Sequence record: MK562502
Source of the DNA: Shigella phage KPS64
Reading direction: 5' to 3' (one strand)
DNA: 64,000 nt
Shown: piece by piece, positions 4,985 to 62,782 of the stretch
Layout of the letters: each line of letters opens with the position of its first letter
How positions within the stretch are numbered: position 1 is the first letter of the stretch
Program-made: the position numbers and the translations under genes
Notes under the pieces: generated by a model
Database searches by the model: none
Told to the model about the DNA's origin: nothing
The model's input: only the letters and a program-made list of their open reading frames with translations

Positions 4985-5425
4985 ATGAATACAAAAGCAT
5001 TAGCAGCAAAGTTTAGTTACGGTGATACTGTATCACACTCTGAGATGGACACCTTCTTAGGTATTGTGAAGCCGACTTATCAAGGTGACATTGTTAAGTA
5101 CGAAGATGAAATGAAGGCTTACGCACTTACACGCCTAAATCGACTTGAGAAGTTTATTGAGAAGCTTCTTAAAGAAGAGAAGATTTATCTGGTTACTTCA
5201 ATGGGTGTTGGTTATCGTGTGGTGGAACCTAAACATCAAGCAACTATTGCAAAACGTAAAATGTCTAGTAAGATTGGTCGTGCTTTAAAACAAGCCACTC
5301 AAGCGATTGAGAATGTGAACACTATGGCACTTAGTCATCAAGAACGTTCACGACTGATTGAACAGCAAAACCATTTAGCTGCTATGAAAGCTAACATTAA
5401 CAAGCAACGTAGAAAACCTTTCTAA
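4985..5425 (+). CDS. hypothetical protein (146 aa)
   Basis: ORF followed by an intrinsic terminator. Confidence 0.45.
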   Translation: MNTKALAAKFSYGDTVSHSEMDTFLGIVKPTYQGDIVKYEDEMKAYALTRLNRLEKFIEKLLKEEKIYLVTSMGVGYRVVEPKHQATIAKRKMSSKIGRALKQATQAIENVNTMALSHQERSRLIEQQNHLAAMKANINKQRRKPF

Positions 5426-5434
5426 GTTGACTAG

Positions 5435-5460
5435 GCAGCCTCTTCGGAGGCTCCTTTTTA
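5435..5460 (+). terminator. rho-independent terminator
   Basis: agcctc-ttcg-gaggct hairpin followed by a T-run. Confidence 0.6.
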
Positions 5461-5499
5461 AAAGGTCTTCAAAGAGGGTCTTTTAATGAGGTCTGTCAT

Positions 5500-5570
5500 G
5501 GTGATGTTTGGTAGGGTTTGGCAAGGTTCAGTCAGGTAAAGTGTGGTCTAGTAAGGTAGGGTGTGGGTAG
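5500..5570 (+). repeat. pentameric (GGTNN)n tract 3
   Basis: ggtga tgttt ggtag ggttt ggcaa ggttc agtca ggtaa agtgt ggtct agtaa ggtag ggtgt gggta. Confidence 0.65.
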
Positions 5571-5571
5571 T

Positions 5572-5599
5572 TAATCGGAGCTACATAAAAATTCGATTA
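5572..5599 (+). other. hairpin with conserved loop GAGCTACATAAAAAT (family member 3)
   Basis: Stem taatcg/cgatta. Confidence 0.5.
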
Positions 5600-5640
5600 C
5601 ATCACTTAAGAGTCTTCTAAGAGGGTTTTTAAGTGATGTT
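5600..5640. repeat. 39-bp palindromic element (copy 2)
   Basis: ACATCACTTAAGAGTCTTCTAAGAGGGTTTTTAAGTGATGT, near-identical to 4041-4079. Confidence 0.6.
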
Positions 5641-5641
5641 T

Positions 5642-5709
5642 GGTGGTGGTTTGGTAATGTGAGGTAAGATGTGGTATAGTAAGGCGGGGTTTGGTATGGA
5701 AGGATGGCA
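5642..5709 (+). repeat. pentameric (GGTNN)n tract 4
   Basis: G/T-rich tract with GGT-type triplets at roughly 5-nt period. Confidence 0.55.
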
Positions 5710-5732
5710 GTAGCCTTATAAAAAATCTGCCA
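5705..5732 (+). other. hairpin with conserved loop TAGCCTTATAAAAAAT (family member 4)
   Basis: Stem tggcag/ctgcca. Confidence 0.5.
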
Positions 5733-5750
5733 AATAAGCTATAAAATCTG

Positions 5751-5785
5751 TTGACAAGTCAGGTGTTATAGCTTATTTTTATACT
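5751..5785 (+). promoter_or_regulatory. candidate sigma70-like promoter
   Basis: TTGACA at 5751-5756 with TATTTT (17-nt spacer) and TATACT further downstream; exact -10 unclear. Confidence 0.35.
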
Positions 5786-5819
5786 CAAATATATACAAAA
5801 TTTTATATAGGAGATAGTT

Positions 5820-7548: not shown

Positions 7549-8064
7549 ATGAAAATTGGAATTACCCTTTGCCAGCCTGAAGCAGAGTTCTTGAAATCAA
7601 TGTTGTCTGAGCATATGAAGTCCACAAATCATACTGAGAAGACATTCTTGATTGACACTAACTATGATGCAGGAACTATTGAGTTCATTGATGAAGACAC
7701 TGCTGACTCTCTGTGTGTTCTTCCTGCTCACTTATTTACTCCAGAGCTACGGGATAGTCGTTCTATTGAAGTTAATCTGGAGCCAAGTATCGAACTGTAC
7801 TCAGATACACAGTATCCAAGAAGCTTTAAAGCATTGCTAAACATCTTTATAGCTGATATTGTAGAGATTGTTAAGCAGACTGAAGGTGGTCATGTAGTAA
7901 CTGCTGAGTGTGAACAAGGCACTATCAAACTGACAGGTGACTTTGGTTCTATGAGTTTCTTAGACTTTGTTCCAAAACACTTTGAAGATTTCCTGTCAAG
8001 TGAAGTTGATGACCTTGATTTCATACTAAAATTTGAACGCACTTTTAAGGTAAACAAAAAATGA
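7549..8064 (+). CDS. hypothetical protein (171 aa)
   Basis: ORF, no motif. Confidence 0.4.
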   Translation: MKIGITLCQPEAEFLKSMLSEHMKSTNHTEKTFLIDTNYDAGTIEFIDEDTADSLCVLPAHLFTPELRDSRSIEVNLEPSIELYSDTQYPRSFKALLNIFIADIVEIVKQTEGGHVVTAECEQGTIKLTGDFGSMSFLDFVPKHFEDFLSSEVDDLDFILKFERTFKVNKK

Positions 8065-12891: not shown

Positions 12892-14067
12892 TTACGCAGT
12901 TCTCTTCCAAACATATACAACATAAGAAGGTTGCTCAATATTAAATGCTTGTCCAGCACCAAATGCACCAGTTGTACCTGAGTGAGTGTGCTCAGAAGAT
13001 TGAACTGTCACAGTACCTGAGTGTCCATGTGAACCAATTGCAACGCTGTGTCCATGTGCTCCGATATACACACTGTGAGAGTGGTTACCACCAACTGAAG
13101 AGTTAACATTGAAGGTATGTGTGTGAACCCCATCAAAGTCTGTATATGACGCATTCCCAACACCTGCATCAGCCGTTGCCGTAATAGCATTCACACCACC
13201 CCTGTCAGAACCCCTCAATGGAATCCTGTGGCTGTGACTACCAGCACTGCTTACAGAACCATTAACGTTATGAGCGTGGCTTCCAGATTCGTTTGTGGCC
13301 TTAGAACCGTAATCAAAACTTGATGTGCTCTTAGTCCCATAGTCAAAGCTAGAAATTACTACTGTTGCATTATGGGAGTGTCCACCACCAGTTAACAATA
13401 CAGAGTGTGTGTGGCTTGGAATGTTATTTTGTGTAAGTGTTACAGTAGCAGAACCAAATACTGATTCTACAGGTCTTGTATCTGTGTCATAACCGACAAG
13501 AGACCTTCCTTTAGAAACTAACTCCCAAGTACCACCACAAAGTAAATATGTAGATGGGTTTGCAGGGTTAACTGACAAATGAATAGTACCAATCGGATAG
13601 CTATTCTGGATAGCCCTGTATAAAGCATTCACAGCTTTTGCAGTAGCATACTTATCAGCATCTTCAGAGTAAGAGTTTGAATATGTCCAGTTTTGAATAT
13701 TAGACAAACCTACTTGAATCTTGTTAGTGTTGTGAGGGTTATTCTTGTCATTAATGTGATTCTGGATAAGAGCATTAACTTCATCACTTGATAGAATATT
13801 AAGGTTCTGCCTAGCCTCTTCAACACTAACCACGTCTGACAAGTTATTAGCAGCCACTAATTGGAGTGCGTTAACAACATTACCAAGTTCTACGTGAACC
13901 TTTGTAACACCGTGTGGGTTATTTCTTAAAGATGCGTGTGGAGCAAGTAATTGCTCAAGTGTGCATCGTTTATCCTCAATACCTTGCTTAAGGTGAAAGA
14001 TATCACTTAAATCAATAGGCAACGAGGCTTGAGGTAATGCACTAATTTGAATTTCACCGACTGGCAT
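12892..14067 (-). CDS. tail fiber protein (391 aa) with HxH repeats
   Basis: Multiple HTHS, GHSHN, SHAHN, HTHTF, NHSHS, AHGHS, SHGHS motifs. Confidence 0.6.
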   Translation of the reverse strand: MPVGEIQISALPQASLPIDLSDIFHLKQGIEDKRCTLEQLLAPHASLRNNPHGVTKVHVELGNVVNALQLVAANNLSDVVSVEEARQNLNILSSDEVNALIQNHINDKNNPHNTNKIQVGLSNIQNWTYSNSYSEDADKYATAKAVNALYRAIQNSYPIGTIHLSVNPANPSTYLLCGGTWELVSKGRSLVGYDTDTRPVESVFGSATVTLTQNNIPSHTHSVLLTGGGHSHNATVVISSFDYGTKSTSSFDYGSKATNESGSHAHNVNGSVSSAGSHSHRIPLRGSDRGGVNAITATADAGVGNASYTDFDGVHTHTFNVNSSVGGNHSHSVYIGAHGHSVAIGSHGHSGTVTVQSSEHTHSGTTGAFGAGQAFNIEQPSYVVYVWKRTA

Positions 14068-14069
14068 TA

Positions 14070-14369
14070 TTAGCTCCCTTTATATTCGTATGTGTAAAGG
14101 TTAGTCGTGCTAGTGGGTGCAGTTCCTGTTACTGTGTCAATTAATTCCCAACCATTGGAAACTAAATCAGGTTGCTCCATAGCAAATGAACGAACCTCTC
14201 CAACCGTACCATTTACTTTGTTAAGCAAATAGTTGATAATATAGTTAAACCACTGACGACCCATAGGCTCACCCCTTAATAGGCCAGTGGCTTGAATTTC
14301 TGGAGGTGGTAAAACTTTAAGCTGGTTACCATCAGCATCAACTGTATCTGTAGACCATGAAAGAGACAT
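14070..14369 (-). CDS. tail/baseplate-associated small protein (99 aa)
   Basis: Position between fiber and baseplate genes only. Confidence 0.3.
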
Positions 14370-15265
14370 TATGAACTTCCTTCTTGTTGAGATTTATCTT
14401 TTCTGCCTTTGACGATTTGGGCGACTTCTGCCATAATCCCATAATCACCACCTGCTACTGTTTCTTTACCAGCAATGAAATAGTCGTTGCTATTGTTTGT
14501 TTTGCTGACTTTTAAATAATCTTTACTGGTACTTCCACCAGTTTTATCCACTCTTACATAACCATCTCTTACACCTGCATCTGCAAAACTACCTAATTTA
14601 TTTGCTTCTAGAGAGCCACCTGTGTTGTTCGTAATAAGACCCTTGTTAGTGTTTGTTACAAACCAGTTATTGTTCTCATCAGTAATTGCCAGAGATGAAT
14701 CGGCAACCTCTACAGGAGTCCAAGCAGTACCATTTAAGGTAACATCTCTAAGGATAACTGCTGAACCAATAGTTGTTGCAGCAATCTTAGAAAGTGTGTA
14801 TGCTGTATCTAACACGTTATTACGAGTGTTTACACGGATAACAATTCCACCAGTCATTGGCGTAATGTGCTCAAAAATCTGACTGAATGATGCGTTGTAA
14901 AGGGTCATAACAGCCCTTTGTAAGAAGCTTGGTGTGGTGTCAGAACGTCTTAAGAAAATTTGAATGTAGAGGATAGCTCTGTAAGTGTCATCATCAGCAC
15001 CAATAGGTCTAGGGACTTTAATCAAAGCCCCGATGTTATCAAGTTGTGTGCCAACACCTACACGAATATTTCTTTCAGTATATAACTGATTACTGATATC
15101 CTCTAATAATTGTAACTCATCTGTGATAGATTTCAATAGACTCGTGTAAATAAACTTATCTTTGAATTGAGTTACAGTTCTTTCGTCCAATGTTTTCTCA
15201 TAAAAGTTTTCAATCTTTTTAAACATTGTTACTCCTTGGTAATTGTATACTGTGAGCTTTCCCAA
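14369..15265 (-). CDS. baseplate or fiber-attachment protein (298 aa)
   Basis: Position in baseplate module; product inferred from synteny. Confidence 0.4.
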
Positions 15266-16698
15266 ACAGTGTACTGGTCACCATCAATAGTGATTCTTGA
15301 GGTTGTGTACTGCCCCTCAGCAGGTGGAATTGCTTGGTTATTTGAAAGTGCAACCTTAATCTCATTAATCTCGATACCTTGAATCACATCATAGATATGT
15401 CCATAGATTCTGTTAGGGATTACATCGTTACCAACTTTCAAAGTTCTACCGTAGGCATTAATACCTTGAACAATTCTGTCATGAATATCCTGTTCAGGGA
15501 TGTTAAGAGTTTCTTCATCATAAAGAGAGTAAGTAACCTTGACAAAAACGTATTTAGGCATTGGCCTACTAAAGTAAACGTCGTGAGGGAGAGAACCTAA
15601 GTCATATGCAGTCCCAAAGATTGAACCATATGGGCGAATACCAGCAGGTTTCGTGTCCCAGATTGCCTGTGCAATATTATCATTCTGACCACCAACTACA
15701 ACAATCTTAAAAGACTTCGGAGGAAGACCATCAGAGTTTGTTGTCTCAGTATCATTTTCTACACCAGAAGCATCAGACACACCTTGAACTCTCTTGACAG
15801 CAGCTACAATAGCATCTAGAGTACCTACACCAGTAACAGCCAGAGATTCTAAGTAACGTTGTCTCAGTTCTGTGTCAGTTTCCTCATCACGACCTGTTGT
15901 CAAGTCATATCTGTTGAAAACACTATCGAGACCATCTACAGTTGTTTCAATCTCAATCAAGGTTCCTGCCAGAGTCTGGATGGCTCCAGTTTCATCTGCT
16001 ACAACGTCACTAATTGAAGTAATCTTTGTAAATGTTAAGAATGTCGTTGCGGTAACAACCATAGGGTTAGTTCTGGCAATGATATCTCCAGTGTCTTTAT
16101 AGATTCTCAGAACTGAACCATCATTAGTAACTTCAGCCTTTGCAATAATACCACCATTAATAGCATCTGCAAGTTTCTGTAGCAATGTTGTAATGGTATC
16201 AGAACTAGTCGGCTGATATGAATACTCAATGTTGTCAATGATAATAACATAGTTTGCATCTGTTCGTAAAGAGTTAACTTCTAAGTTTGCCTCTACACAG
16301 TAAGATGGAGTCAGTGTGAAAGTTGACACAGGGTAAAAGATATTACCTGCTGTGCTTCTTAATCTTGTAGTGGCTGGTACAGGAGCACCAGAATTACCAG
16401 TGAACTCAGCTTGGCCTCTTGTAGCCTGTGCCACATATCTGTATACAGCATTCAAAGCTGTTACATCATCTAAACTGAATCCTTCAGCTTTGTCAATAGT
16501 ACCACCGTCATAGATTTCTGACAAGATTTCATGAACGTCTGCAAGACCTCGGCAAACAGAAGCTAAGAATAACCCAAGTTCGCTATCTTCAGAAACATCA
16601 AGGTTTGGTGAGATATCTCTATACAGACTTGCTTTAACATCATCCAAGATTTCTTGATATCTTTTTGTTTGTAAACCTGTAGTTGTTAATCCAGCCAT
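15229..16698 (-). CDS. baseplate J-like protein (489 aa)
   Basis: Size and position upstream of a W/gp25-like gene; synteny inference. Confidence 0.45.
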
Positions 16699-17113
16699 TA
16701 AATATTTACCTCTGTATTAATTTCAACATCGTCAGCAGTTGTCGTTGCATTAAATCTTACTGACACTTTTCTCATTGCATTATCCATTGTTGAAGAGTAG
16801 TTGTAGATGTTTGTTACATCTCTCGTTTCAACAAGGTAACCTTTCATATAATTATCAAAAATAGAGGTCTTCTGCTTGAACTTAGCAAGCTGTAAATAAG
16901 GGAATCCAGCAGATGTATTAAAGAATACCTCTCCAGCCCTTAGAAGACACCTAATATGTAATCTTTGAGCTACCTGAGTAGCTTTATCGTCTTCTGGGAT
17001 AATTCTAATCTGATTACCCGTAATTTTTAAATCTCCGTGAGCAACGTATACAGAATCATTTCCTAATTTAGCTACGTAGTCACCACCAAGATTGATTGCA
17101 AAATCTGTTTTCA

Positions 17114-17114
<1 letters not shown>
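16698..17114 (-). CDS. baseplate protein, W/gp25-like (138 aa)
   Basis: Size and order typical of the P2 W / T4 gp25 family. Confidence 0.45.
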
Positions 17115-19875
<2,761 letters not shown>

Positions 19876-22113: not shown

Positions 22114-22340
22114 TAAATTTTACCTGCTTTTCTGAGTTCGTTGTAAGCCATTTCTTCTTTATATGACTTCTGGATTTCTAAATACTGACGTAGAGATAAT
22201 AAATCAACGAAGGTCATATCAAAAAGTTGGTTGAGTGTTTCTTTACACCCATCCATACCATAAATAGCAAGCACAAATTTCATCTCATCTGCTTCATCAT
22301 AAGTTGCCTTTACAGCCCCGTCAGTCAGCGGGGTCTGCAT
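22113..22340 (-). CDS. tail assembly chaperone-like small protein (75 aa)
   Basis: Position immediately upstream of tape measure. Confidence 0.35.
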   Translation of the reverse strand: MQTPLTDGAVKATYDEADEMKFVLAIYGMDGCKETLNQLFDMTFVDLLSLRQYLEIQKSYKEEMAYNELRKAGKI

Positions 22341-49090: not shown

Positions 49091-49142
49091 TTAGCCCCTT
49101 AAAATGGATTCGATAGAATCTATCTCATAGGGGCTTTTTATT
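49091..49142 (+). terminator. rho-independent terminator with palindromic element in its loop
   Basis: agcccct ... aggggct stem enclosing GATAGAATCTATC, followed by TTTTTATT. Confidence 0.5.
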
Positions 49143-50719
49143 GAGTAAAATTTACGAAATTTATAATTTTTATAAAATTTGGGACTCACTCCGTTCATCT
49201 TGGGTCACCATGATATGTGATAAAATATCTATACCCTTCTAAACACCCTCTCTAAGCATCATCTCTATATAGTATTATATAGTATCTATATAGCCTCTTA
49301 GTCCCTAAATAGTGCTCTCTATATAGCCCTCTATAAAGCCTTCTAAGCCTACCATTAATCAACCCTATACAATCACCTTCCTAACCTCTTCCTAGCCCCT
49401 TAGAAGCCCCTATACTCATCTTAATCTCTAGGTTATCTGTGTTACTTAACAGTAACCCATTAGGTAAACGATAGTACCCTATATAGCAGAATCACTAGGT
49501 ATTACTAAGCCTCTATATAGACTGTTATATAACACTAAACAGGTATTCCCTGTAAAGGCTTATCCTACAAGGTCTAACACGGTACTAACAAGGTATCTTA
49601 TAAGCCTGTTAATTCCTGTTTTATATAAGATAGTGTATAGATAGTTATTCAGTTCTATAAAATTTTTATAAAATAGACTAGGTAGTGTTTGTTTAGGAGT
49701 CTTTGGAGAATCTGAAAAATATCTACAGAGGGTGTATATCTGCTTGGTAGCCCTTAACAGCCCTGTAACATCCCCTTTGCAAAATCTTAAAATATCATTA
49801 ACAATCTCTTAACAACTCTATCAAGCTCTTAACATCTCTTCAAAGTTCTTAACAGTCTCTTAACAGAACTAACAAGAGCTTAACAAGTCTGTAACATTAC
49901 TAACAAGAGTCTAACAAGTTGCTTATAAGTTGCTAAATAGTTAAATCTTAAGAGTTATTTTGTTAAGATAATTAACAAGGTGCTAACAAGTTCTAAACCT
50001 TTTTAACAAGCTATTAACATGGTCACTATCTCTTGGTCTATAGTTCCCTTCCCTTCTTAGTGATTCTCTTAAAAGCCCTCTTAAAAGCTCTCTATAGCTC
50101 TGTATAGCCTCTTCTAAGCTTCTCCCTAGTAACTACACCCCAACTACCTGTATAGCTCTTTGTAGGGCTTTCTAGGGGCTTATACAGGGACTTCAAAGTG
50201 TCTAACAAGCTCTTAACATACATCTAACAAGGATTTAACAAGGGGCTAACAAGTCTCTAATAAGCATAACTATGTTGCATTTGTTAAGATTTTGTTAAGA
50301 GAATGTAAAGGGGGCTAACTTTTACGTTACTTTTAAGCATCTTTTACGTTACTTTGAAGACTCCATAGCATACTTTAAAGTAACTAACAAGCCCCTGTTT
50401 AACTATTCACAAGATTCTATCCAGCTTATAAGCTTATACCCTTATAAGATTCTTTTAAGGCTCTAGAAAGCTCTATAAAGGGCTTTTAAGAAGTGGTTAA
50501 TATGATTGCTTAAGATGAGATGATAAGCCCGTATAGAGCGTTATAGAGCGTTTTAGGGATTGCCCTTCCCTTTCGGGTTATGGGCTTATATTTAAGTTGA
50601 TTTGATAAGAGGATATAGAGTAAGCTATAGAGTTATTGCTCTGAAGGTATGAGATAGATTCTATTGAATCAATGATATGAATCTTTATATAGGATTCGAT
50701 AGAGGACTATCTCATAGAC
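49143..50719. other. 1.6-kb gene-free, pyrimidine-skewed, repeat-dense region
   Basis: No ORF of 60 aa or more in any frame; clusters of CTATATAG palindromes, CT(T)AACA(A/G) heptamers and CTCTTAAAAG repeats. Confidence 0.6.
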
Positions 50720-51958: not shown

Positions 51959-52212
51959 AGATTCTCCAGTTTAGGAATTTTGTTTTAGTGGGGAAGTCTC
52001 CCTCCCCGTTGATGAATACTTTACTTGTTTTGATTCTGTATTGCAAGTAGTTTTTTATCAAAAAGTTTATCTGAGATTTCACCAAAGATTCTCCAGTTTA
52101 GGAATTTTGTTTTAGTGGGGAAGTCTCCCTCCCCGTTGATGAATACTTTACTTGTTTTGATTCTGTATTGCAAGTAGTTTTTTATCAAAAAGTTTATCTG
52201 AGATTTCACCAA
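51959..52212. repeat. 127-bp perfect tandem duplication (2 copies)
   Basis: 51959-52085 and 52086-52212 are identical: cassette plus 3' end of a small membrane-protein gene. Confidence 0.7.
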
Positions 52213-52280
52213 TGATGAGCATTGCTAATGGCAACACAACAGAAACAATCATACCGCAAAGGATAGGGTTTTTAATGATA
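52148..52280 (-). CDS. small membrane protein (46 aa), C-terminus ...LLAIQNQNK
   Basis: ATG at 52280 nine nt after GGAG; below the 60-aa track cutoff; paralogous C-terminus to gene 55326..55673. Confidence 0.35.
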
Positions 52281-52484: not shown

Positions 52485-52826
52485 TTAGCTTATAAAGATT
52501 TTTTCTGGCTTAACATAGGTTAATGACTGTTTTTTAAGCAAATCAGACCAAATGAGCGCGGCAATGTGACTATATCCCTTTTCTCTTAACTCCTGCATAG
52601 CTGATTTGCGAGTTTCAAAACGTGTAGCATAGTATTCAGTGTTAAGGGTAGTTTTATTCCCTTCATTGTCAACATGTACAATCTGCATCACTTGAAAGGG
52701 GCTTACATCTTCTCCCCTGTTCCATTGCTCAAAGTACTTGAGACACTGCATAGGTTTCATTTTGTCGTTAACTTGGGTAGACCATGACGAATTTTCTTTA
52801 TCGGTGATAATTGTTACATAGGCCAT
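52485..52826 (-). CDS. protein (113 aa) of array
   Basis: ORF preceded by cassette. Confidence 0.45.
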   Translation of the reverse strand: MAYVTIITDKENSSWSTQVNDKMKPMQCLKYFEQWNRGEDVSPFQVMQIVHVDNEGNKTTLNTEYYATRFETRKSAMQELREKGYSHIAALIWSDLLKKQSLTYVKPEKIFIS

Positions 52827-52918
52827 TTTTAGATTCTCCAGTTTAGGATTGTTGGTAAAGCTCTTTATCTGGGGCTTATCTTATCTAATTATAAACCCCA
52901 TGTAAAGCACTTTATTAG

Positions 52919-53140
52919 TTATTTGTAGTAATAATATGTAAACTCATTTATCAGGCTTCCATCCTCATTATTATACTGCTTATGACTAGCCAGATAACCG
53001 CCATTAGCTAGAATTTCATCAATCAACTTTTTAGCGTCATCGTTGGGAATCCTAACAGGGTTATTAAATGGTTGTAAATAGGTACGACGAACATTTGAGA
53101 ATTTAAAATCAATGGTTTTTACGTTAAGAACTTGCAACAT
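52919..53140 (-). CDS. small protein (73 aa) of array
   Basis: ORF preceded by cassette. Confidence 0.4.
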   Translation of the reverse strand: MLQVLNVKTIDFKFSNVRRTYLQPFNNPVRIPNDDAKKLIDEILANGGYLASHKQYNNEDGSLINEFTYYYYK

Positions 53141-53225
53141 TTTTTGAATCTCCAGTTTAGGATTGTTGGGGCTTCTAACTTGCCCCGTTGATGAGTACTC
53201 TACTGGTTTGCGTTTTCAGTGTCAA

Positions 53226-53456
53226 CTACTTTTCTATAAGAATTTCATAATCACCATTCACACTATCAAAATAAATCCCGTATTCATCTTCTGATTTATA
53301 GTAACATTGGATATCATCTGATGCAGGGTAATCTTGTCTTGCTATCTGACAGGCAACAATAGCATTATTTTCGCTACCTGTAAACTCTTCTAAACCTTTA
53401 AAGTCACATTGTGAACCATTGCAGATAGATAGAATAAGATAGATTGTTGTAAGCAT
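53226..53456 (-). CDS. small Cys-containing protein (76 aa), putative signal peptide
   Basis: ORF; upstream has hairpin but no cassette. Confidence 0.4.
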   Translation of the reverse strand: MLTTIYLILSICNGSQCDFKGLEEFTGSENNAIVACQIARQDYPASDDIQCYYKSEDEYGIYFDSVNGDYEILIEK

Positions 53457-53519
53457 CTTTTAAGCCTCTTGTAAGCCCCTATGCGGGGCTTTTCTAGTGA
53501 ACTGGTATGATTCTATCGT

Positions 53520-54077
53520 TTATGCTGTCAAGTCGTTTATAGCCGTTTCTGTTACGTTACATTGCATTGTGTCAAAGATATCACAATATACATTGCTCAT
53601 CTCATCACTACGTTGGACTATTGCCGCAATGTTGCGTAATTCATCCGGTATATAACCCAAGTTCCTATTATTCAGGTTAGGGACAAAGAAAGGCGCATAC
53701 ATAGCATTAAATTCAGTTGTGTAAACCTTTTTAATCCATTCTTTATCGAAATACTCTGTAAAGCTTGCTACGTCGCTCATGTTCTCACAGCTCCAGTCAT
53801 CTTGTAATTCATCTTCTGGAATATCAAGTTCCAAGATAACAAGTTTTTGTGACTTCATTTGATAGGCTGCTGTAATGCTTGCACTGTCAAGCGCGTTTTT
53901 AATACCTTCATCTATGATTTGTTCGTCATCCAGATTTTCTACATCATAGAACTTGCTAACAGGGTAGACATAAAAACATCCATCCATATCAGAGCAATTC
54001 CAGACTCCTGATGGTTTATCACCGCCATTCATAAGGTTTACAAAGTTTTCTTGTGTAGTACCATGAAAGCATTTCAT
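53520..54077 (-). CDS. protein (185 aa) of array
   Basis: ORF preceded by cassette. Confidence 0.45.
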   Translation of the reverse strand: MKCFHGTTQENFVNLMNGGDKPSGVWNCSDMDGCFYVYPVSKFYDVENLDDEQIIDEGIKNALDSASITAAYQMKSQKLVILELDIPEDELQDDWSCENMSDVASFTEYFDKEWIKKVYTTEFNAMYAPFFVPNLNNRNLGYIPDELRNIAAIVQRSDEMSNVYCDIFDTMQCNVTETAINDLTA

Positions 54078-54161
54078 TTTAGATTCTCCAGTTTAGGATT
54101 GTTGGTAAAGCTCTTTATCTGGGGCTTATCTTATCTAATTATAAACCCCATGTAAAGCACT

Positions 54162-54410
54162 TTATTTAGTTTTCTTTGTAAAGATTAGTTTAACGGCAAC
54201 AGTTGGTAACTCTTCAATACTTGTGAACAAAGTCACTTTTTGAGTCTTGACATTATAGCCATACTTTGAACCATAAGCCGTAAAACGGTTTACAATGTAA
54301 CTGTAAGTTTTTGCAGTGTTATCTGGCATATGATATAAAAACGGCTTGCCAAGGTTATCAAGTTGTGTTAATAGTCGGCAGGTATCAGGGATATTCAACA
54401 TATTAAACAT
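54162..54410 (-). CDS. small protein (82 aa) of array
   Basis: ORF preceded by cassette. Confidence 0.45.
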   Translation of the reverse strand: MFNMLNIPDTCRLLTQLDNLGKPFLYHMPDNTAKTYSYIVNRFTAYGSKYGYNVKTQKVTLFTSIEELPTVAVKLIFTKKTK

Positions 54411-54495
54411 TTTCAGATTCTCCAGTTTAGGATTTTTGGGGCTTCTAACTTGCCCCGTTGGTGAGTACTCTACTACTATGCTTTTGCAATGTCAA

Positions 54496-54903
54496 TCAAA
54501 TCTCTGAATAAATCGCATCGCAGATTTCACGGAAAACTTCAACCGGTAAGTTACGCTGTAACCATGTTGCAAAGAAATCAGCAATTGCAAAGTTTGCATC
54601 AAAATCAACACATAGCCACACTTTAACAGCAAATCTAAACATTTTCAAGTCAAGTTCTTTATTCATTACTTTTGACTTTGACAGCATTTCCTTCATCTCA
54701 TATTGAGCACCGTCAATTATAGCCCCTGCTGCTACATCTTGCAATGATTCTTTAAGCTGTTTTGTGTCTACTACTACGCCCTGAATTTTACCGATGATAT
54801 TATGCAGTGTTTCGTCTGGCGCTGCTGATGTTACAATGTTGATGCGGTTAATGGTCAAACGTGCTTTCAAAATTGCAACTTCTTTGTGATTAACATTAGT
54901 CAT
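54496..54903 (-). CDS. protein (135 aa) of array
   Basis: ORF preceded by variant cassette. Confidence 0.45.
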   Translation of the reverse strand: MTNVNHKEVAILKARLTINRINIVTSAAPDETLHNIIGKIQGVVVDTKQLKESLQDVAAGAIIDGAQYEMKEMLSKSKVMNKELDLKMFRFAVKVWLCVDFDANFAIADFFATWLQRNLPVEVFREICDAIYSEI

Positions 54904-54993
54904 TTTTGATACTCCAGTTTAGGTTAGTTTTAGATAAATCTCTTTATCTGGGGCTTATCTTATCTAACTATAAACCCCATGTAAAGCAATTTA

Positions 54994-55266
54994 TTAGACT
55001 AAATACAATTTTTTACCGCTAACAATAATATAACTTACACCGCTATTACTATAAACATCTTGATAAATTCTGCGTAACTTTCCAAGGTATCGAACTTTCC
55101 AAGATGTAGGAATTTTCTTTCCATATCCTGTGGCGGTTTTTTGTAAACCTGCTACTTGCCAATCTAATAGGTGCTGTTCTGCTCTTAACTCTTCAAAGTT
55201 TAATACACCGTCTATATAGTGTTTTAAAGTTACGTTCAAAGTTCGACCGTCATTAGTAGTATACAT
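54994..55266 (-). CDS. small protein (90 aa) of array
   Basis: ORF preceded by cassette. Confidence 0.45.
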   Translation of the reverse strand: MYTTNDGRTLNVTLKHYIDGVLNFEELRAEQHLLDWQVAGLQKTATGYGKKIPTSWKVRYLGKLRRIYQDVYSNSGVSYIIVSGKKLYLV

Positions 55267-55325
55267 TTTCAGATTCTCCAGTTTAGGATTGTTGGGGCTT
55301 CTATCTTGCCCCGTTGATGAATACT

Positions 55326-55673
55326 TTACTTGTTTTGATTCTGCATTGCAAGCTCTTTTTTATTAATTTCTTGCGCTATCAAGATATAATAATCTTTCAG
55401 GTTTATATCTTGAATTGACTCAAGAAGTATGTCATAATCACTGATTAATTTAAAATCACCGTCTAGGATGTTATCAATCCGGTATGTTTCTGCTTTGAAT
55501 CGAAAGCTCATCTCTAAGCGTTTCAATTGTTCTAAGCTCAAACGCTCTAAAAAGCCCCGTACAAGATTTATTTTTAAATCCCTTGTAAGTGCCTTATTAG
55601 CTATACTGTGCGCTTGTAAGGCTTTATAGAGCGCCACAATAGAGATAAAAATTGCAACGTATGTGATTAACAT
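55326..55673 (-). CDS. small membrane protein (115 aa), C-terminus ...ELAMQNQNK
   Basis: N-terminal TM helix; start overlaps upstream stop (ATGTTAA). Confidence 0.45.
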   Translation of the reverse strand: MLITYVAIFISIVALYKALQAHSIANKALTRDLKINLVRGFLERLSLEQLKRLEMSFRFKAETYRIDNILDGDFKLISDYDILLESIQDINLKDYYILIAQEINKKELAMQNQNK

Positions 55674-55963
55674 TTGTTTTTACCTTTGTGGAATAGTTTA
55701 CCAGTGTGACTAATTTCATATGAATCAACCATATCTCTAGTGGTCTTAATCGATGACTTATTAGTGTTATCATAGATATCAACCTGAAGCAATGGTTTTT
55801 TGTATTCTTTACAAAAGTTCCATACACAAATTATTACTTCCTTTTTGTTAATCTTTCCATGATACCACTCTACGGCTTCAGATGTACGGCGCATAGATTC
55901 AATGAATTGAATATTACTTAATAGCTGGCTTAATTTAGTTCTAACGTTTGCGGCAATAAACAT
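55667..55963 (-). CDS. small protein (98 aa) of array
   Basis: ORF preceded by cassette. Confidence 0.45.
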   Translation of the reverse strand: MFIAANVRTKLSQLLSNIQFIESMRRTSEAVEWYHGKINKKEVIICVWNFCKEYKKPLLQVDIYDNTNKSSIKTTRDMVDSYEISHTGKLFHKGKNKC

Positions 55964-56047
55964 TTTAGATTCTCCAGTTTAGGATTGTTGGTAAAGCTCT
56001 TTATCTGGGGCTATCTTATCAACTTGATAACCCCATGTAAAGCACTT

Positions 56048-56560
56048 TTAGATATTAAAGATATTCATAACAGAATCTTTCAAGGCTTCTAAACGTTCCA
56101 TTACTTCAGATTCTCCATCGGAGTTCGACACTTCCTCTTCTAATCGTGAATCTAAATCTTCCCCGTCAAGATAACACCAATCGAAACCATAAGCAAGTGA
56201 AAAGCTATTTAATACCGTATTACCTTCTTTATCTTCTACCTTTGCAAATAGCACATAGCTGTTAGCTTCTAAATCTCTTTGTAATTCATCTTGTAAGCTC
56301 TTGTAAGCCTCTATAGATGGATTTTCGCGGCCTTGTTTAGCATAATCACTCATCAATTGTGAAAGGCTGTAATGCTGTGGAATTGCATATTTGTACCCGT
56401 TACGCTCTGGATTTTTAAGTTTGATTGTAACCCCGCCTTTGTGCTCATCTGTAAACTTCCAATTTTCCACACAATGGGATGCTTCACAAATATTAACAGC
56501 TTCATAGATGATAGTGAATTTTTCTTTTTGAACTTCAAAGGTAGCTTCAACGTATGACAT
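56048..56560 (-). CDS. protein (170 aa) of array
   Basis: ORF preceded by cassette. Confidence 0.45.
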   Translation of the reverse strand: MSYVEATFEVQKEKFTIIYEAVNICEASHCVENWKFTDEHKGGVTIKLKNPERNGYKYAIPQHYSLSQLMSDYAKQGRENPSIEAYKSLQDELQRDLEANSYVLFAKVEDKEGNTVLNSFSLAYGFDWCYLDGEDLDSRLEEEVSNSDGESEVMERLEALKDSVMNIFNI

Positions 56561-56652
56561 ATTAAGATTCTCCAGTTTAGGACTATTGGTTAGTAAAGCT
56601 CTTTATCTGGGGCTTATACTAGCAACTTATAAACCCCATGTAAAGCACTTTA

Positions 56653-56910
56653 TCAGATTAAATTGTCAGTTAATGATAAGTGCATTTTATAACCTTTCTT
56701 CGTGTAGACGTTAGTTCTACCGATTGCTTTTACACCTTTGAAAAGGTCATAGGAACTACGTTTTAAAGTAATTTCCTTATCACATTTTACGCCCCATCTT
56801 ACAGCAGATTCTTTTCCGTTGTCAACCACTTTACCATTTAATTTTTTAGCAGTTGCGCGAGCGTCATCACGAGACTTTGCAGATACAATGATGTTTTTGA
56901 TAGTAGCCAT
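56653..56910 (-). CDS. small basic protein (85 aa) of array
   Basis: ORF preceded by variant cassette. Confidence 0.45.
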   Translation of the reverse strand: MATIKNIIVSAKSRDDARATAKKLNGKVVDNGKESAVRWGVKCDKEITLKRSSYDLFKGVKAIGRTNVYTKKGYKMHLSLTDNLI

Positions 56911-57002
56911 TTTTGATACTCCAGTTTAGGTTATTGGTTTGGTAAAGCTCTTTATCTGGGGCTTATCTTATCTAATTATAAACCCCATGTAAAGGACTTT
57001 AT

Positions 57003-57383
57003 TTAGTTAATTTTGAAAACTGTAACGTAGCCGTCACTACCAATAGTTTGAGATACTCCAGCTTTCTCTACATCATACCCCATTTTATCAAGATGGTACA
57101 TTGCATCTTCATACCCATATTTACCGCCTTGATAGCGTCTTTTTTCGCATCGTATCACAGTTTTACCACGTCCTGCAATAGCATTTATGATAGCTTTTTC
57201 ACCGGATAATGTACCGTCAAGCATAGTAGCTTTGTAGTGGTTAATACGGTTACCATTAACATCATACTTAAAATTGTAAGCGTGAACAACAATTATTTTT
57301 CCTTTGAAGTTTTCTTTCATAGTTTCCTCTAAGATACTACGAAAGTTTTCTTTGTTGATAAATTTAGGCGCACGATATTTCAT
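57003..57383 (-). CDS. protein (126 aa) of array
   Basis: ORF preceded by cassette. Confidence 0.45.
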   Translation of the reverse strand: MKYRAPKFINKENFRSILEETMKENFKGKIIVVHAYNFKYDVNGNRINHYKATMLDGTLSGEKAIINAIAGRGKTVIRCEKRRYQGGKYGYEDAMYHLDKMGYDVEKAGVSQTIGSDGYVTVFKIN

Positions 57384-57467
57384 TTTAGATTCTCCAGTTT
57401 AGGATTGTTGGTAAAGCTCTTTATCTGGGGCTTAATATACTAGCTTTTAAACCCCATGTAAAGCACT

Positions 57468-57674
57468 TTAAACGTTATAATAATAAATTGCTGTATGCCT
57501 TGTAAACTGTCTTGTATGATTTGTCAAGTAACAATCTGACCTGATTGACGTATTAACATATTTATCAAAATCTTTTTCTGAGATACGTTGCCAAACATCA
57601 CAAATTAGCATATAGAAACGACGTTTATTTGTTTTGTTGTTGTCAACAATCATTAACTCACGTTGATATAACAT
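57468..57674 (-). CDS. small protein (68 aa), first gene of array
   Basis: ORF preceded by cassette and upstream promoter. Confidence 0.4.
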   Translation of the reverse strand: MLYQRELMIVDNNKTNKRRFYMLICDVWQRISEKDFDKYVNTSIRSDCYLTNHTRQFTRHTAIYYYNV

Positions 57675-57723
57675 TTTCAGATTCTCCAGTTTAGGATTGT
57701 TGGGATGTTTCCCGTTGATGCAA

Positions 57724-57752
57724 ATACTATAAGACTGGATTTATGAAGTCAA
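57724..57752 (-). promoter_or_regulatory. sigma70-like promoter for the small-gene array (TTGACT, 16-17 nt, TATAGT)
   Basis: Read on minus strand: attttgTTGACTtcataaatccagtctTATAGTat. Confidence 0.45.
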
Positions 57753-57925
57753 CAAAATTTTTAAAAATATTTTTGATGTTTCGTGAATAGAACGCACGTA
57801 TGCGGATACACTAAAACAGGAATCTAGTCAAGAATTATTTTTGAGTTCTCTACAAATTTTTATCTTGACTTTTGGGAGGAAGGGGAGTAAGAGGGGATGG
57901 TGGGGCTGGTTTCCTACAGCTACCT

Positions 57926-58118
57926 ACCTGCACAAACTGAAAATGAATTTTCCCTTTGGAGTCCAACTGCATCTGCACAGATTGAAAATGAAAAACCCCT
58001 TTGGAGTCTAAACCTGCACGTTTTGAAAATGAATTTTCCCTTTGGAGTCCAGCTAAAGAAATCTGTCCAGAGTTCTATGCAACTATACCTGCACAAATTT
58101 GAAATGAAAAAGCCCTCC
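57926..58118. repeat. about four tandem copies of a 40-42-bp unit (CCTGCACA..TGAAAATGAA..CCCTTTGGAGTC)
   Basis: Direct repeats read at 57926, 57968, 58012, 58087. Confidence 0.6.
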
Positions 58119-58178
58119 TTACCTGAGATTTAAAACTCAAACTTTGGAGGGCTTGTCTATGTCTATCTAGGTGACTTA

Positions 58179-58973
58179 TTAGTTACGTGCTTCAACATAG
58201 TTTACGTTTTCATGTGTGATATAATCTTCTGCAAACTCTTCTGTAGTCGCATTTATATATACACTTGCATCATCGCCAAACGTTACCGCTCTGTGGTGGT
58301 GGCCTTGTAACGGGTGGGTAACTTGAGCGTTACTTCGATTGTACTTCTCAACCGGAGGGTAACTGGTGTGTACCTTGCCATTACGCTTCACCTTGAGGGT
58401 AACTTTATCCTTGCCTACCACAGCAACACCATCAAAGTATTGAGGCTCACTGAAGTTCTCCCAACCAGTAACAGGGCTAGTCAACTGACTGTACATCTTA
58501 TCTTCATAGACATACATATATACGTCAACATCTTTCATGGTCTGGTTAATAATGGACAGCACAGCCATGCTATCAAGACCACCAATCCCTGCACCAATCA
58601 TCGGAAGTCCAACCTTCTTAAGTTGGTTAACTTTACAGTAGTTGTTAAGACGCTGTAAAGCTGCTTCTAAGGCGTTGTATCGTGCATCTTTGCCAGTGAT
58701 AACCTGAGTGTAAAGGTTAGCAATTCGACCCTGCTTCAAACGTGCTACAGAGATGTTACCAAGCATTAGATGCTTAGGGTTATGGTTTTCACCACCTACT
58801 GTAGCATAAACTTCAGCGTCAGTTTCATAAGCTTTTGGGTAGCGTTTAGCAATTGTTGCTGCGATACCTGCACCCATCAAGTTCATGCAGTTACAACCGT
58901 GACCAATGATATCAAACTTCTTACCATCAAAGTCTTTAAAGATATCACCTTTAATAATTTTTACGATACCCAT
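58179..58973 (-). CDS. macro-domain protein (ADP-ribose binding/processing) with C-terminal extension (264 aa)
   Basis: IIKGDIFKDFDG...IIGHGCNCMNLMGAGIAATIAKRYP and VGLPMIGAGIGGLD macro-domain motifs; start set to ATG at 58973 after GGGAG. Confidence 0.55.
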   Translation of the reverse strand: MGIVKIIKGDIFKDFDGKKFDIIGHGCNCMNLMGAGIAATIAKRYPKAYETDAEVYATVGGENHNPKHLMLGNISVARLKQGRIANLYTQVITGKDARYNALEAALQRLNNYCKVNQLKKVGLPMIGAGIGGLDSMAVLSIINQTMKDVDVYMYVYEDKMYSQLTSPVTGWENFSEPQYFDGVAVVGKDKVTLKVKRNGKVHTSYPPVEKYNRSNAQVTHPLQGHHHRAVTFGDDASVYINATTEEFAEDYITHENVNYVEARN

Positions 58974-58974
58974 A

Positions 58975-59175
58975 TTAGTAATGCTCCCAACGTTCGTTAT
59001 CTTCAGATGGTTTAACTCGGTTACCTTCATGGTCTACCCATAAAGCACCGCAACCTTCACAGATTACTGGCATTGCTGAACCAGCTTCAAATTCTGCCTT
59101 TGTAAAGAGACCTTTTAAGTCTCCTGTATCTTTTCCAAACATCTCAACAGAACACTTAGTGCAGAAATCAGCCAT
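58975..59175 (-). CDS. small zinc-ribbon protein (66 aa)
   Basis: CTKCS ... CEGCG cysteine pairs; stop 1 nt before macro-domain start. Confidence 0.4.
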   Translation of the reverse strand: MADFCTKCSVEMFGKDTGDLKGLFTKAEFEAGSAMPVICEGCGALWVDHEGNRVKPSEDNERWEHY

Positions 59176-59404
59176 TTGATATTACCTCTTGGAAGTATGT
59201 ATCACCTTCATAAGAGTAATTACACTTAAACTCTTCTAAGCTTAATCTTGTAAGCAGAGGATTCAGGTAGTGTTTAAAATCCCCTATCTTGAAGTTGTAG
59301 TGAATCAAGGGGTTCATGAATGGTATTACCTCATCCCGTCCAACAAATATAGCCCCTACTAACACTTGACGTGTAACTTTACTTCTTACCAGAATTGCTT
59401 TCAT
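59168..59404 (-). CDS. hypothetical small protein (78 aa)
   Basis: ORF, no motif. Confidence 0.35.
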   Translation of the reverse strand: MKAILVRSKVTRQVLVGAIFVGRDEVIPFMNPLIHYNFKIGDFKHYLNPLLTRLSLEEFKCNYSYEGDTYFQEVISNG

Positions 59405-59708
59405 ACATCACCTTTTCAGTTAGCTCAAACAGGTCAACATGTTCGATGCTTTCAATATGGATACCAACTTTTGCATAGCGTTCTTTAACATTCTCTGCAT
59501 TAAGCCATATCAGACACCAATGATTCTCTATGGATTCTTCAAGCTTGTCAACACAATCTTTAAAAGATTTCATATCTCCACGAGTACCAATGAATGCAAC
59601 AACCCCATAGAGAAACTCTTTACCACTGTGACAGACTTGTGCTGTACCAATTTCTTTCTCACCGTCTGAAAAGACGGCTACATAATTCTTACCATCTAGT
59701 TGCATCAC
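59379..59708 (-). CDS. hypothetical protein (109 aa)
   Basis: ORF, no motif. Confidence 0.35.
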   Translation of the reverse strand: MMQLDGKNYVAVFSDGEKEIGTAQVCHSGKEFLYGVVAFIGTRGDMKSFKDCVDKLEESIENHWCLIWLNAENVKERYAKVGIHIESIEHVDLFELTEKVMYESNSGKK

Positions 59709-60963: not shown

Positions 60964-60990
60964 ATGAAAAAGGCTCCCGAAGGAGCCTCT
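60964..60990 (-). terminator. rho-independent terminator (minus strand)
   Basis: aggctcc-ttcg-ggagcct hairpin followed by TTTTT on minus strand. Confidence 0.55.
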
Positions 60991-62697: not shown

Positions 62698-62755
62698 TTG
62701 CACTCCTATTTTGTTAAACATGCAGACAATTATACACTAACCTGCACATTTTTCA

Positions 62756-62782
62756 AATAAAAAAGGCTGCCGAAGCAGCCCC
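62756..62782 (-). terminator. rho-independent terminator (minus strand)
   Basis: ggctgc-ttcg-gcagcc hairpin followed by TTTTTTATT on minus strand. Confidence 0.55.

Follow-up and report, generated by a model that had tools for sequence, protein, structure and literature searches.

A conserved direct-repeat array of putative binding sites behind the terminator of the rIIA-to-macro-domain operon in Felix-O1-type phages

The origin of phage lambda consists of four iterons and an adjoining asymmetric A+T-rich stretch, and phage T4 carries 'promoter-early stem-loop' cassettes, modules repeated in the early small-gene region. In phage T5, the first step of DNA transfer covers the leftmost 7.9% of the genome and ends at conserved non-coding repeats with DnaA boxes (10.1101/866236). 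For phage Felix O1, a terminator named t13 was placed at 7947..7994 with -21.8 kcal/mol (Whichard et al. 2010, PMC3185647, Table 2). Here we describe a homologue of t13 and, directly behind it, an array of four direct repeats in a 64,000-nucleotide stretch of Shigella phage KPS64 (record MK562502; hereafter the window), a Felix-O1-type myovirus of the subfamily Ounavirinae, genus Mooglevirus. Terminator and array lie inside a 504-bp gap that separates two minus-strand genes, the macro-domain gene on the upstream side (58179..59030; Pfam Macro) and, on the downstream side, a 68-aa gene (57674..57468) that is the first of a long series of small genes. While the terminator has already been published, the literature searched holds no description of the repeat array; in the Felix O1 paper, direct repeats are listed only from 24 bp upwards, and those of the array are not mentioned (PMC3185647).

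Compared with iteron origins such as lambda ori and those of iteron plasmids, the array is alike in having three to five direct repeats of about 19-22 bp in non-coding DNA, bipartite with a spacer of free sequence, and in a candidate A+T-rich or strand-asymmetric stretch next to them; it differs in the spacing of its units (37-45 and 73-77 bp, not about 22 bp), in having no recognisable initiator gene and in an extra copy of its motif that lies within a promoter elsewhere. With promoter-coupled terminators (Fletcher et al. 2026, preprint) it shares a T-tract followed by promoter-like hexamers, seen at the unit next to the terminator (U4) and at the extra, solitary copy. Unlike in these terminators and in the T4 cassettes, the conserved bases of the array are not promoter or terminator determinants, three of the four units have no hairpin or -10 hexamer, and number and spacing are fixed across genera rather than shuffled. 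The injection stop region of T5 (Davison, 10.1101/866236) likewise has non-coding repeats that are better kept than the neighbouring genes, a position about 8% of the genome from one fixed end (for our phages, if the ends are placed as below) with small early genes between, and DnaA-box-like 9-mers (here in some lineages only). It differs in its size of about 1.2 kb, in its nested palindromes and eight paired DnaA boxes and in its place within a terminal repeat of 10 kb, whereas here there are four simple direct repeats, a direct terminal repeat (DTR) of 0.6 kb that lies elsewhere and no reported stepwise entry.

Sequence, geometry and conservation of the array

Each repeat unit has a bipartite core of about 19 bp that reads W5-TCATTTY-N6/7-GTGCAG(G/A)T on the minus strand. 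First in the direction of transcription is U4 (58087..58112; CTTTTTCATTTCAAATTTGTGCAGGT), which has its T-tract in common with the terminator, followed by U3 (58012..58037; AAAATTCATTTTCAAAACGTGCAGGT), U2 (57971..57996; GTTTTTCATTTTCAATCTGTGCAGAT), preceded by a very weak mini-hairpin, and U1 (57926..57951; AAAATTCATTTTCAGTTTGTGCAGGT). A repeat search returned the four copies as 43-nt stretches starting at 57926, 57971, 58012 and 58087 on the plus strand, with 60-88% identity to the reference, and the 21-nt core pattern has four matches in the window and none in 100 shuffles. An earlier note, written from the letters of the window, had claimed four tandem repeats of 40-42 bp and proposed Tandem Repeats Finder as a check; the program reports 57926-58051 with a period of 45, 3.0 copies, 75% matches and a score of 139. 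The four copies are real, but their start-to-start spacing is uneven (45, 41 and 75 bp), three units being contiguous and the fourth set apart by an insert of about 35 bp.

When 19 non-redundant relatives were aligned, TCATTT and GTGCAG were invariant or nearly so in all four units, the invariant columns of each unit including TTTTT.ATTT and GTGCAG. The spacer between the two halves keeps its length (N6/7) with free sequence, the order of the W5 tracts across the units is conserved (T5, A4T, T5, A5), and what precedes each core is specific to the lineage. Between U2 and U1, the window has the 21-nt linker ATGCAGTTGGACTCCAAAGGG, Felix O1 has ACCCCGCTCAGGTCGGGCAAG and ESCO50 has AGAAAAATCAGGTCGGGCAAG, sequences that are unrelated or half-related and of equal length; this replacement at identical length points to a constraint that is geometric rather than one of sequence. 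In the linker between U4 and U3 (58038..58086, minus strand), the aligned Felix O1 version has three TAGAG motifs about 10 bp apart.

The earlier note had allowed for the repeats being absent from relatives; the opposite was found, since essentially every relative among 255 records retains them. Felixounavirus, Mooglevirus and Suspvirus phages are alike in unit number, order and spacing, the start-to-start distances in every four-unit genome being 73-77 bp (83 in SflM004 only), 39-41 bp and 45 bp, and the Si3 group is alone in having three units. Identity over 57600-58300 is 96-98% with the Shigella phages Henu11 and Sf13-Sf19, about 94% with the Citrobacter phages Michonne and Mordin, and about 75% with Felix O1 as well as some 220 further Felixounavirus records. 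Between the window and Felix O1, terminator plus array are 73% identical, the remaining gap 73-75%, the macro gene 68% and the 68-aa gene 67%.

In Erwinia phage phiEa21-4 (Kolesnikvirus), whose macro protein is 34.6% identical to that of the window, the macro gene is followed by a terminator, by four units of the form GG..TTTTTCATTTT-N6-(T/C)GTGCATA(G/A) at spacings of 37, 37 and 39 bp, and then by C-rich CCCACCCTCCCCTCTACC; with GTGCATAG as second half, all four units read TCATTTT-N6-GTGCATAG. A third lineage is an 88-kb contig, L060 (IMG/VR UViG_3300045988_063805), which shows protein-level synteny with 58.5-62.6 kb of the window and in which a short macro gene is followed by units of the form AAATTCATTTTAAAAACGTGCATAGG, also given as TCATTTTAAAAACGTGCATAGG. 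In the more distant Pakpunavirus, which has the macro gene, no non-coding gap was found after it. Judged from these comparisons, the array is an old, subfamily-wide element with the common core TYATTTT-N6-GTGCA. After GTGCA, one group continues with GGT and the other with TAG, so that phages of E. coli, Salmonella and Citrobacter have the half-site GTGCAGGT and the Erwinia and L060 lineages GTGCATAG; such a lineage-specific half-site argues for a co-evolving phage factor over a universal host factor. The solitary motif copy described below was looked for in phiEa21-4 with a view to co-evolution and was not found there.

On the reverse strand of L060, at 5200-5800, the units are directly followed by a block of TTAACA repeats (about 150 bp, period about 11 bp), with the end of the contig about 770 bp beyond. 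Array and TTAACA-type repeats, which are 7 kb apart in the window, can by this arrangement be suggested to adjoin in some genomes.

A fifth copy of the motif is found at a second locus (62729..62780, minus strand; conserved in UAB_Phi87) that consists of a terminator, a solitary unit and a promoter. The rIIB-proximal hairpin at 62780..62765 (GGCTGCTTCGGCAGCC) is the homologue of Felix O1 terminator t2, and the unit at 62760..62742 (TTATTTGAAAAATGTGCAG, also given as TTATTTGAAAAATGTGCAGG) stands to it in the same register as U4 to t13. Seven nucleotides past GTGCAG lies TATAAT, which gives the promoter TTGAAA-16-TATAAT (62756..62729), at 11/12 among the best of the region; the solitary motif covers about -38 to -20 of this promoter. 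U4 is also overlapped by a sigma70-like site, TTTTCA-17-TATAGT (58110..58082; 9/12), with the register shifted by 6 nt. When each unit was tested for a -35/-10 pair 16-18 bp apart whose -10 hexamer has A as its second and T as its sixth base, only U4 passed in the window (9/12), none passed in the Felix O1 array, and the Erwinia array gave two antisense sites. The exact motif occurs at five sites, at two loci and on one strand, each locus beside a terminator, in the 87.6-kb UAB_Phi87 genome and in the 64-kb window; a general or phage-specific promoter class is ruled out by this small number. The motif is associated with terminator-promoter junctions, and its invariant bases are not those that sigma70 reads.

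The terminator ahead of the array

The hairpin at 58110..58154 is very probably a minus-strand Rho-independent terminator that ends the rIIA-to-macro-domain operon. Its arms, AAGCCCTCC (58110-58118) and GGAGGGCTT (58146-58154), are separated by 27 nt, as the earlier note had described for a 9-bp stem; the loop, however, is not open, and in the minus-strand RNA it holds a 6-bp helix (58136-58141 with 58122-58127), so that in this terminator an internal loop separates the outer stem of 9 bp from the inner one of 6 bp. The outer stem is GC-rich, and folding of the minus-strand RNA gives -21.4 kcal/mol. The hairpin, whose first base is 58154, begins 25 nt past the stop of the macro gene (gene end 58179) and is directly followed by the U-tract TTTTTCATTT at 58111..58102 on the minus strand (also given as UUUUUCAUUU).

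In the relatives, the homologous hairpin folds at -20 to -29 kcal/mol on the minus strand against -10 to -21 kcal/mol on the plus strand; in most Felixounaviruses the values are about -25 and -11, and the minus-strand fold is stronger by 5-15 kcal/mol because several pairs are G-U on the minus strand. Among the aligned relatives the purine-rich 3' arm AGGTAAGGAGGGC is near-invariant, while the 5' arm varies by lineage with its pairing always kept; in the Si3 and L048 group both arms have changed and the stem is retained. These compensatory changes, together with the stronger folding of the minus strand, settle the identity of the hairpin and its working strand. All three marks of an intrinsic terminator were found, namely a hairpin with a U-tract, a position at the end of a co-directional block and strand-specific, compensated pairing. 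A terminator scan picked up the Felix O1 homologue with 17 pairs, and ASO1B and further records annotate the homologous hairpin as a terminator.

Felix O1 t13 and the window hairpin have in common the 3' arm, the U-tract (AGGTAAGGAGGGCTTTTTCATTT) and the site directly after the macro ('phosphatase') gene. They differ in the 5' arm, and owing to this arm the Mooglevirus hairpin is interrupted (9 bp + 6 bp), where Felix O1 has a continuous stem of 16-17 bp. The earlier note had taken the hairpin as part of an element upstream of the next promoter; it belongs instead to the preceding operon, with U4 fused to its U-tract.

U1-U3 are not terminators, since no stable hairpin precedes their T-tracts: U2 has only a G-U-rich mini-stem of 3-7 pairs, and U1 and U3 have none in most lineages. 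The terminator scan found no strong minus-strand terminator from the weak match at U2 (58009..57993, within the array) down to 50744. Three terminators of the early region (60969-60990, 62765-62780 and 58110-58154) have a near-identical U-tract, TTTTT[C/T]ATTT, that is half of the repeat core, and this match hints that the units arose from a terminator tail.

Binding sites and the competing explanations

Taking into consideration the bipartite core, the distances that stay fixed despite replaced linkers, the single orientation, the restriction to two loci and the half-site variant, all of which are expected of an array of protein sites, we propose that this is a conserved cis-acting direct-repeat array of putative binding sites, acting at the DNA level where the rIIA-to-macro operon borders on the immediate-early small-gene cluster. 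We give this reading a probability of roughly 40%. The four units would serve as docking sites for one sequence-specific DNA-binding protein, more likely phage- than host-encoded, and occupancy of the sites would, together with the terminator, insulate and regulate the junction where the delayed-early/middle operon, upstream, gives way to the multi-promoter immediate-early cluster. The solitary copy, which overlaps the -35 region of the promoter at 62756..62729, would be a further target of this protein.

Among the roles that the earlier note had considered for the repeats, iterons or transcription-factor sites remain the best class of explanation. As that note stated, the promoter that comes first in the small-gene array has the repeats on its upstream side when read along the minus strand; we call this promoter P1 (TTGACT-17-TAGTAT, 57752..57724, minus strand; 9/12), and it is followed by the 68-aa gene; the homologous site in Felix O1 is TTGACA-17-TACTAT (10/12). 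The third role, an enhancer of P1, is not indicated, since the repeats are 175-390 bp away with other conserved blocks between.

Several observations weigh against binding sites. In Pfam and PHROGs comparisons, the ten neighbouring proteins gave no recognisable DNA-binding domain, the macro domain being the sole match; the units are non-palindromic, and a spacing of 37-45 bp is unusual for operators or iterons. The TCATTT half resembles the U-tracts of terminators t2, t5 and t13, so that the units could be relics of terminator duplication kept for another reason. Only one of about 14 promoters of the early cluster is near the array, which alone cannot shut the cluster off, and the searched literature holds no transcriptome or binding data for any Ounavirinae phage.

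Felix O1 and its relatives are widely used as diagnostic and therapeutic phages, yet next to nothing has been described of their transcription programme, origin and early-gene control; according to the genome paper of Felix O1, it is not known how transcription gets past the many terminators or what sets its timing (PMC3185647). The array, at least as conserved between the window and Felix O1 as the flanking genes, is one of few concrete cis-acting handles on this biology, and to name its binding partner would probably be to find either the factor behind the early/middle switch or the subfamily's replication initiator.

Chief among the rivals is a replication origin, which we regard as unlikely. 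The units would then be iterons for a phage initiator, and the asymmetric tract and the AT-rich promoter region would unwind or prime an R-loop in a transcription-activated manner. Four direct repeats of about 19 bp in non-coding DNA, as in iteron-type elements, are present at fixed spacing in a conserved non-coding island of about 500 bp within a gene-dense genome, adjoined by a strand-asymmetric tract (57874-57909, in most lineages including Erwinia), an AT-rich block and several promoter-like sites; the Felix O1 paper mentions no origin (PMC3185647), and none is described for Felix-O1-like phages. Of the candidates for an unwinding element, the AT-rich block (57745-57790) coincides with the upstream region of P1, and the asymmetric tract is G+C-rich and not in all lineages. 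Against an origin, no Rep, O or DnaA-like domain is found in the ten neighbouring proteins, though a novel initiator is conceivable, and the asymmetric tract is replaced or inverted in the EC6/ESCO50 group. The A-tracts have no helical phasing (no consistent 10-11-bp period in a search for intrinsic curvature), GC skew tracks gene orientation with no independent switch at the array, and the fifth copy stands alone within a promoter 4.6 kb away. Compared by eye with the relaxed DnaA-box consensus (TGTGNAWAA), the window units match at 5-7 of 9 positions, although the Erwinia units reach 8/9; a match of that kind has a chance of a few percent in a 25-nt unit, which makes the likeness only a weak lead.

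Somewhat less likely again is that the units are elements for RNA polymerase with no dedicated binder, that is, promoter-coupled terminators or their relics, or weak tandem promoters in sense and, in some lineages, antisense direction. U4 is overlapped by the TTTTCA-17-TATAGT site, and in most relatives TAnnnT directly follows GTGCAGG at U4; the solitary copy lies within the 11/12 promoter, two units of phiEa21-4 give the antisense sites TTGCCA-17-TAAAAT and TTGCCA-17-GAAAAT, and the upstream halves of the units (CTCCAAAGRG) resemble decayed terminator arms. The widespread overlap of terminators and promoters in bacteria also counts in its favour (preprint 10.64898/2026.08.19.745784). This reading explains U4 and the solitary copy, but not the invariant bases, nor the number and spacing of U1-U3. 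GTGCAG and TCATTT are invariant though sigma70 does not read them, and the registers at U4 and the solitary copy differ by 6 nt; U1-U3 have no usable -10 in most lineages and no stable hairpin, the scan found no promoter over the Felix O1 array, and relics would not hold number and spacing across genera.

A function at the RNA level seems improbable. An RNA produced by read-through, by initiation at U4 or in antisense direction, with three to four UCAUUUY-N-GUGCAG copies, would bind or titrate an RNA-binding protein in antitermination or as a sponge. The five copies do have one orientation relative to transcription, the motif is U-rich and unstructured, and in Felix O1 reverse-transcription PCR (RT-PCR) for the old 'ORF14' (open reading frame 14) in the gap was positive with a maximum at 25 min (PMC3185647), though this RT-PCR was not strand-specific as described. 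The array, however, lies downstream of a strong terminator, its linker lengths are conserved in a manner more typical of a constraint on DNA geometry, and RNAalifold, run on 19 sequences, detected neither a conserved fold nor any helix that covaries across the units. Fold z-scores of -1.97 and -1.24 are unremarkable, and in a search of 56500-59500 against Rfam 15 there was no match at or near the gathering score, the only hit within 57724-58152 reaching 17.3 bits against 150.

Very improbable, and argued by analogy with T5, is a DNA-entry checkpoint or anchor, with the array marking the inner edge of an end-proximal segment of about 7 kb that would enter first. Felix-O1-like phages have fixed ends with a DTR of about 0.6 kb, 608 bp in UAB_Phi87 (run-off) and 581 bp in Pr103Blw (PhageTerm) (PMC4837284, PMC8303462). 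With the DTR of UAB_Phi87 placed at about 15260-15833, the distance from the left end to the start of the array would be 6.9 kb, or about 7.8% of the genome, and the 6-7 kb between the inferred left end and the array hold only small early sigma70-driven genes read towards that end; the 8/9 DnaA-box match of the Erwinia units would also fit. Yet an alternative placement of the DTR gives 6.1%, the 7.8% may be a coincidence, and two-step entry was never reported for these phages. The DnaA-box matches of the window are poor, with no paired boxes and no T5-like or other large palindromes.

A small repeat-containing protein on the plus strand (57897..58133, 78 aa), which the earlier note had considered an artefact of the repeats, has next to no chance: the frame is open, has a purine-rich stretch before its ATG and is paralleled by hypothetical proteins in several database records, but these disagree in length and frame (63 aa in Mordin_126, 118 aa in Silverhawkium gp124, 98 aa in ESh21), the ATG is absent in Felix O1, whose RefSeq record has dropped ORF14, and the frame shifts between units (45, 41 bp) and between genera (41 vs 39; 75 vs 73, 77 or 83 bp) while the nucleotide core is kept. 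Several frames are open on both strands because the repeat has no stop codons, and neither start codon nor frame is conserved in the relatives as a conserved small protein would have it. In practical terms, several GenBank records carry spurious ORF annotations across the repeats, and the gap is the site of breaks in two database genomes.

Other elements of the gap and the surrounding region

The two broken records are EC106 (ON210138), where about 200 bp of the gap are missing between the leader of the first small gene and the G-rich tract, and Andreotti (MN850610), which has a chimeric-looking start inside the gap and an inverted duplication at its end; both breaks are probably assembly artefacts. 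As these records start in the gap, a terminal repeat or packaging (pac) site was considered there and rejected, since the ends map about 5-7 kb away. The Bal31-sensitive terminal SpeI fragments of UAB_Phi87 (4322 + 2819 bp) fit only the 6568-bp map fragment 13014-19582, and the array (about 22150-22330) is in the neighbouring 40-kb SpeI fragment. Fragment 13014-19582 contains the homologue of window positions 49100-50700, and the ends and the DTR map in or beside that homologue. In the window, convergent gene blocks meet at this non-coding region of 1.6 kb. Its conservation extends to 293 phage records, those of Erwinia and Hafnia phages among them, and it is dense in short repeats, namely CTTGTTAG/TGTTAAGAG at about every 11 bp, others of the GCTATAGAG type and repeats of 31 bp.

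Two further candidates for the array were rejected. It is not an array of the type of clustered regularly interspaced short palindromic repeats (CRISPR), in which repeats of 28-37 nt alternate with unique spacers of about equal length, as its period is 37-45 bp and the 'spacers' are 13-21 nt long and homologous between phages. None of the sites for IHF, Fis, Fur, PhoB, LexA, CRP or sigma54 fits when the consensus sequences are compared by eye.

Between the array and the small genes, three more elements were recognised. A purine/pyrimidine-asymmetric tract at 57874..57909, G-rich on the plus strand and C-rich on the minus strand, has four G-runs and fits the G-quadruplex pattern; the Felix O1, Moogle, Susp and Erwinia lineages all have it, and phages of the EC6/ESCO50/SflM004 group carry in its place a sequence whose G-rich strand is the opposite one. 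An inverted repeat with perfect 8-bp arms, AGTCAAGA-N29-TCTTGACT (57826..57870), is conserved across genera; possible readings are a dimer site or a pair of divergent TTGACT -35 hexamers whose -10 partners are poor. The AT-rich upstream block, P1 and the 5' untranslated region (UTR) of the first small early gene together occupy 57675..57790 on the minus strand.

The minus strand carries every gene from 64000 down to about 50700, and synteny around the gap is identical in Felix O1 (ORF13, annotated 'phosphatase', gap, ORF15). In that phage, most tested ORFs of the rIIA-to-macro block peak at 10-25 min, ORF13 itself at 5 min; in the small-gene cluster, ORFs 16 and 20-22 peak at 5 min and ORFs 17, 19 and 23 at 25 min (PMC3185647). 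A promoter scan gave about a dozen sigma70-like promoters for the small-gene series of the window. A promoter module recurs before small genes at 52800-57500 (e.g. 56586-56650, 56945-56993 and 57400-57462), made up of TTTACA, a GGGGCTT...AAGCCCC hairpin across the spacer, a TAAGAT-type -10 and the common leader CCAACAATCCTAAACTGGAGAATCT, and it recalls the 'promoter-early stem-loop' cassettes of T4. At 51959-52216, a 127-bp unit is present as a tandem duplicate at 99% identity; it holds a module of the 5'-UTR/promoter type (AGATTCTCCAGTTTAGGA...) that recurs before many small early genes.

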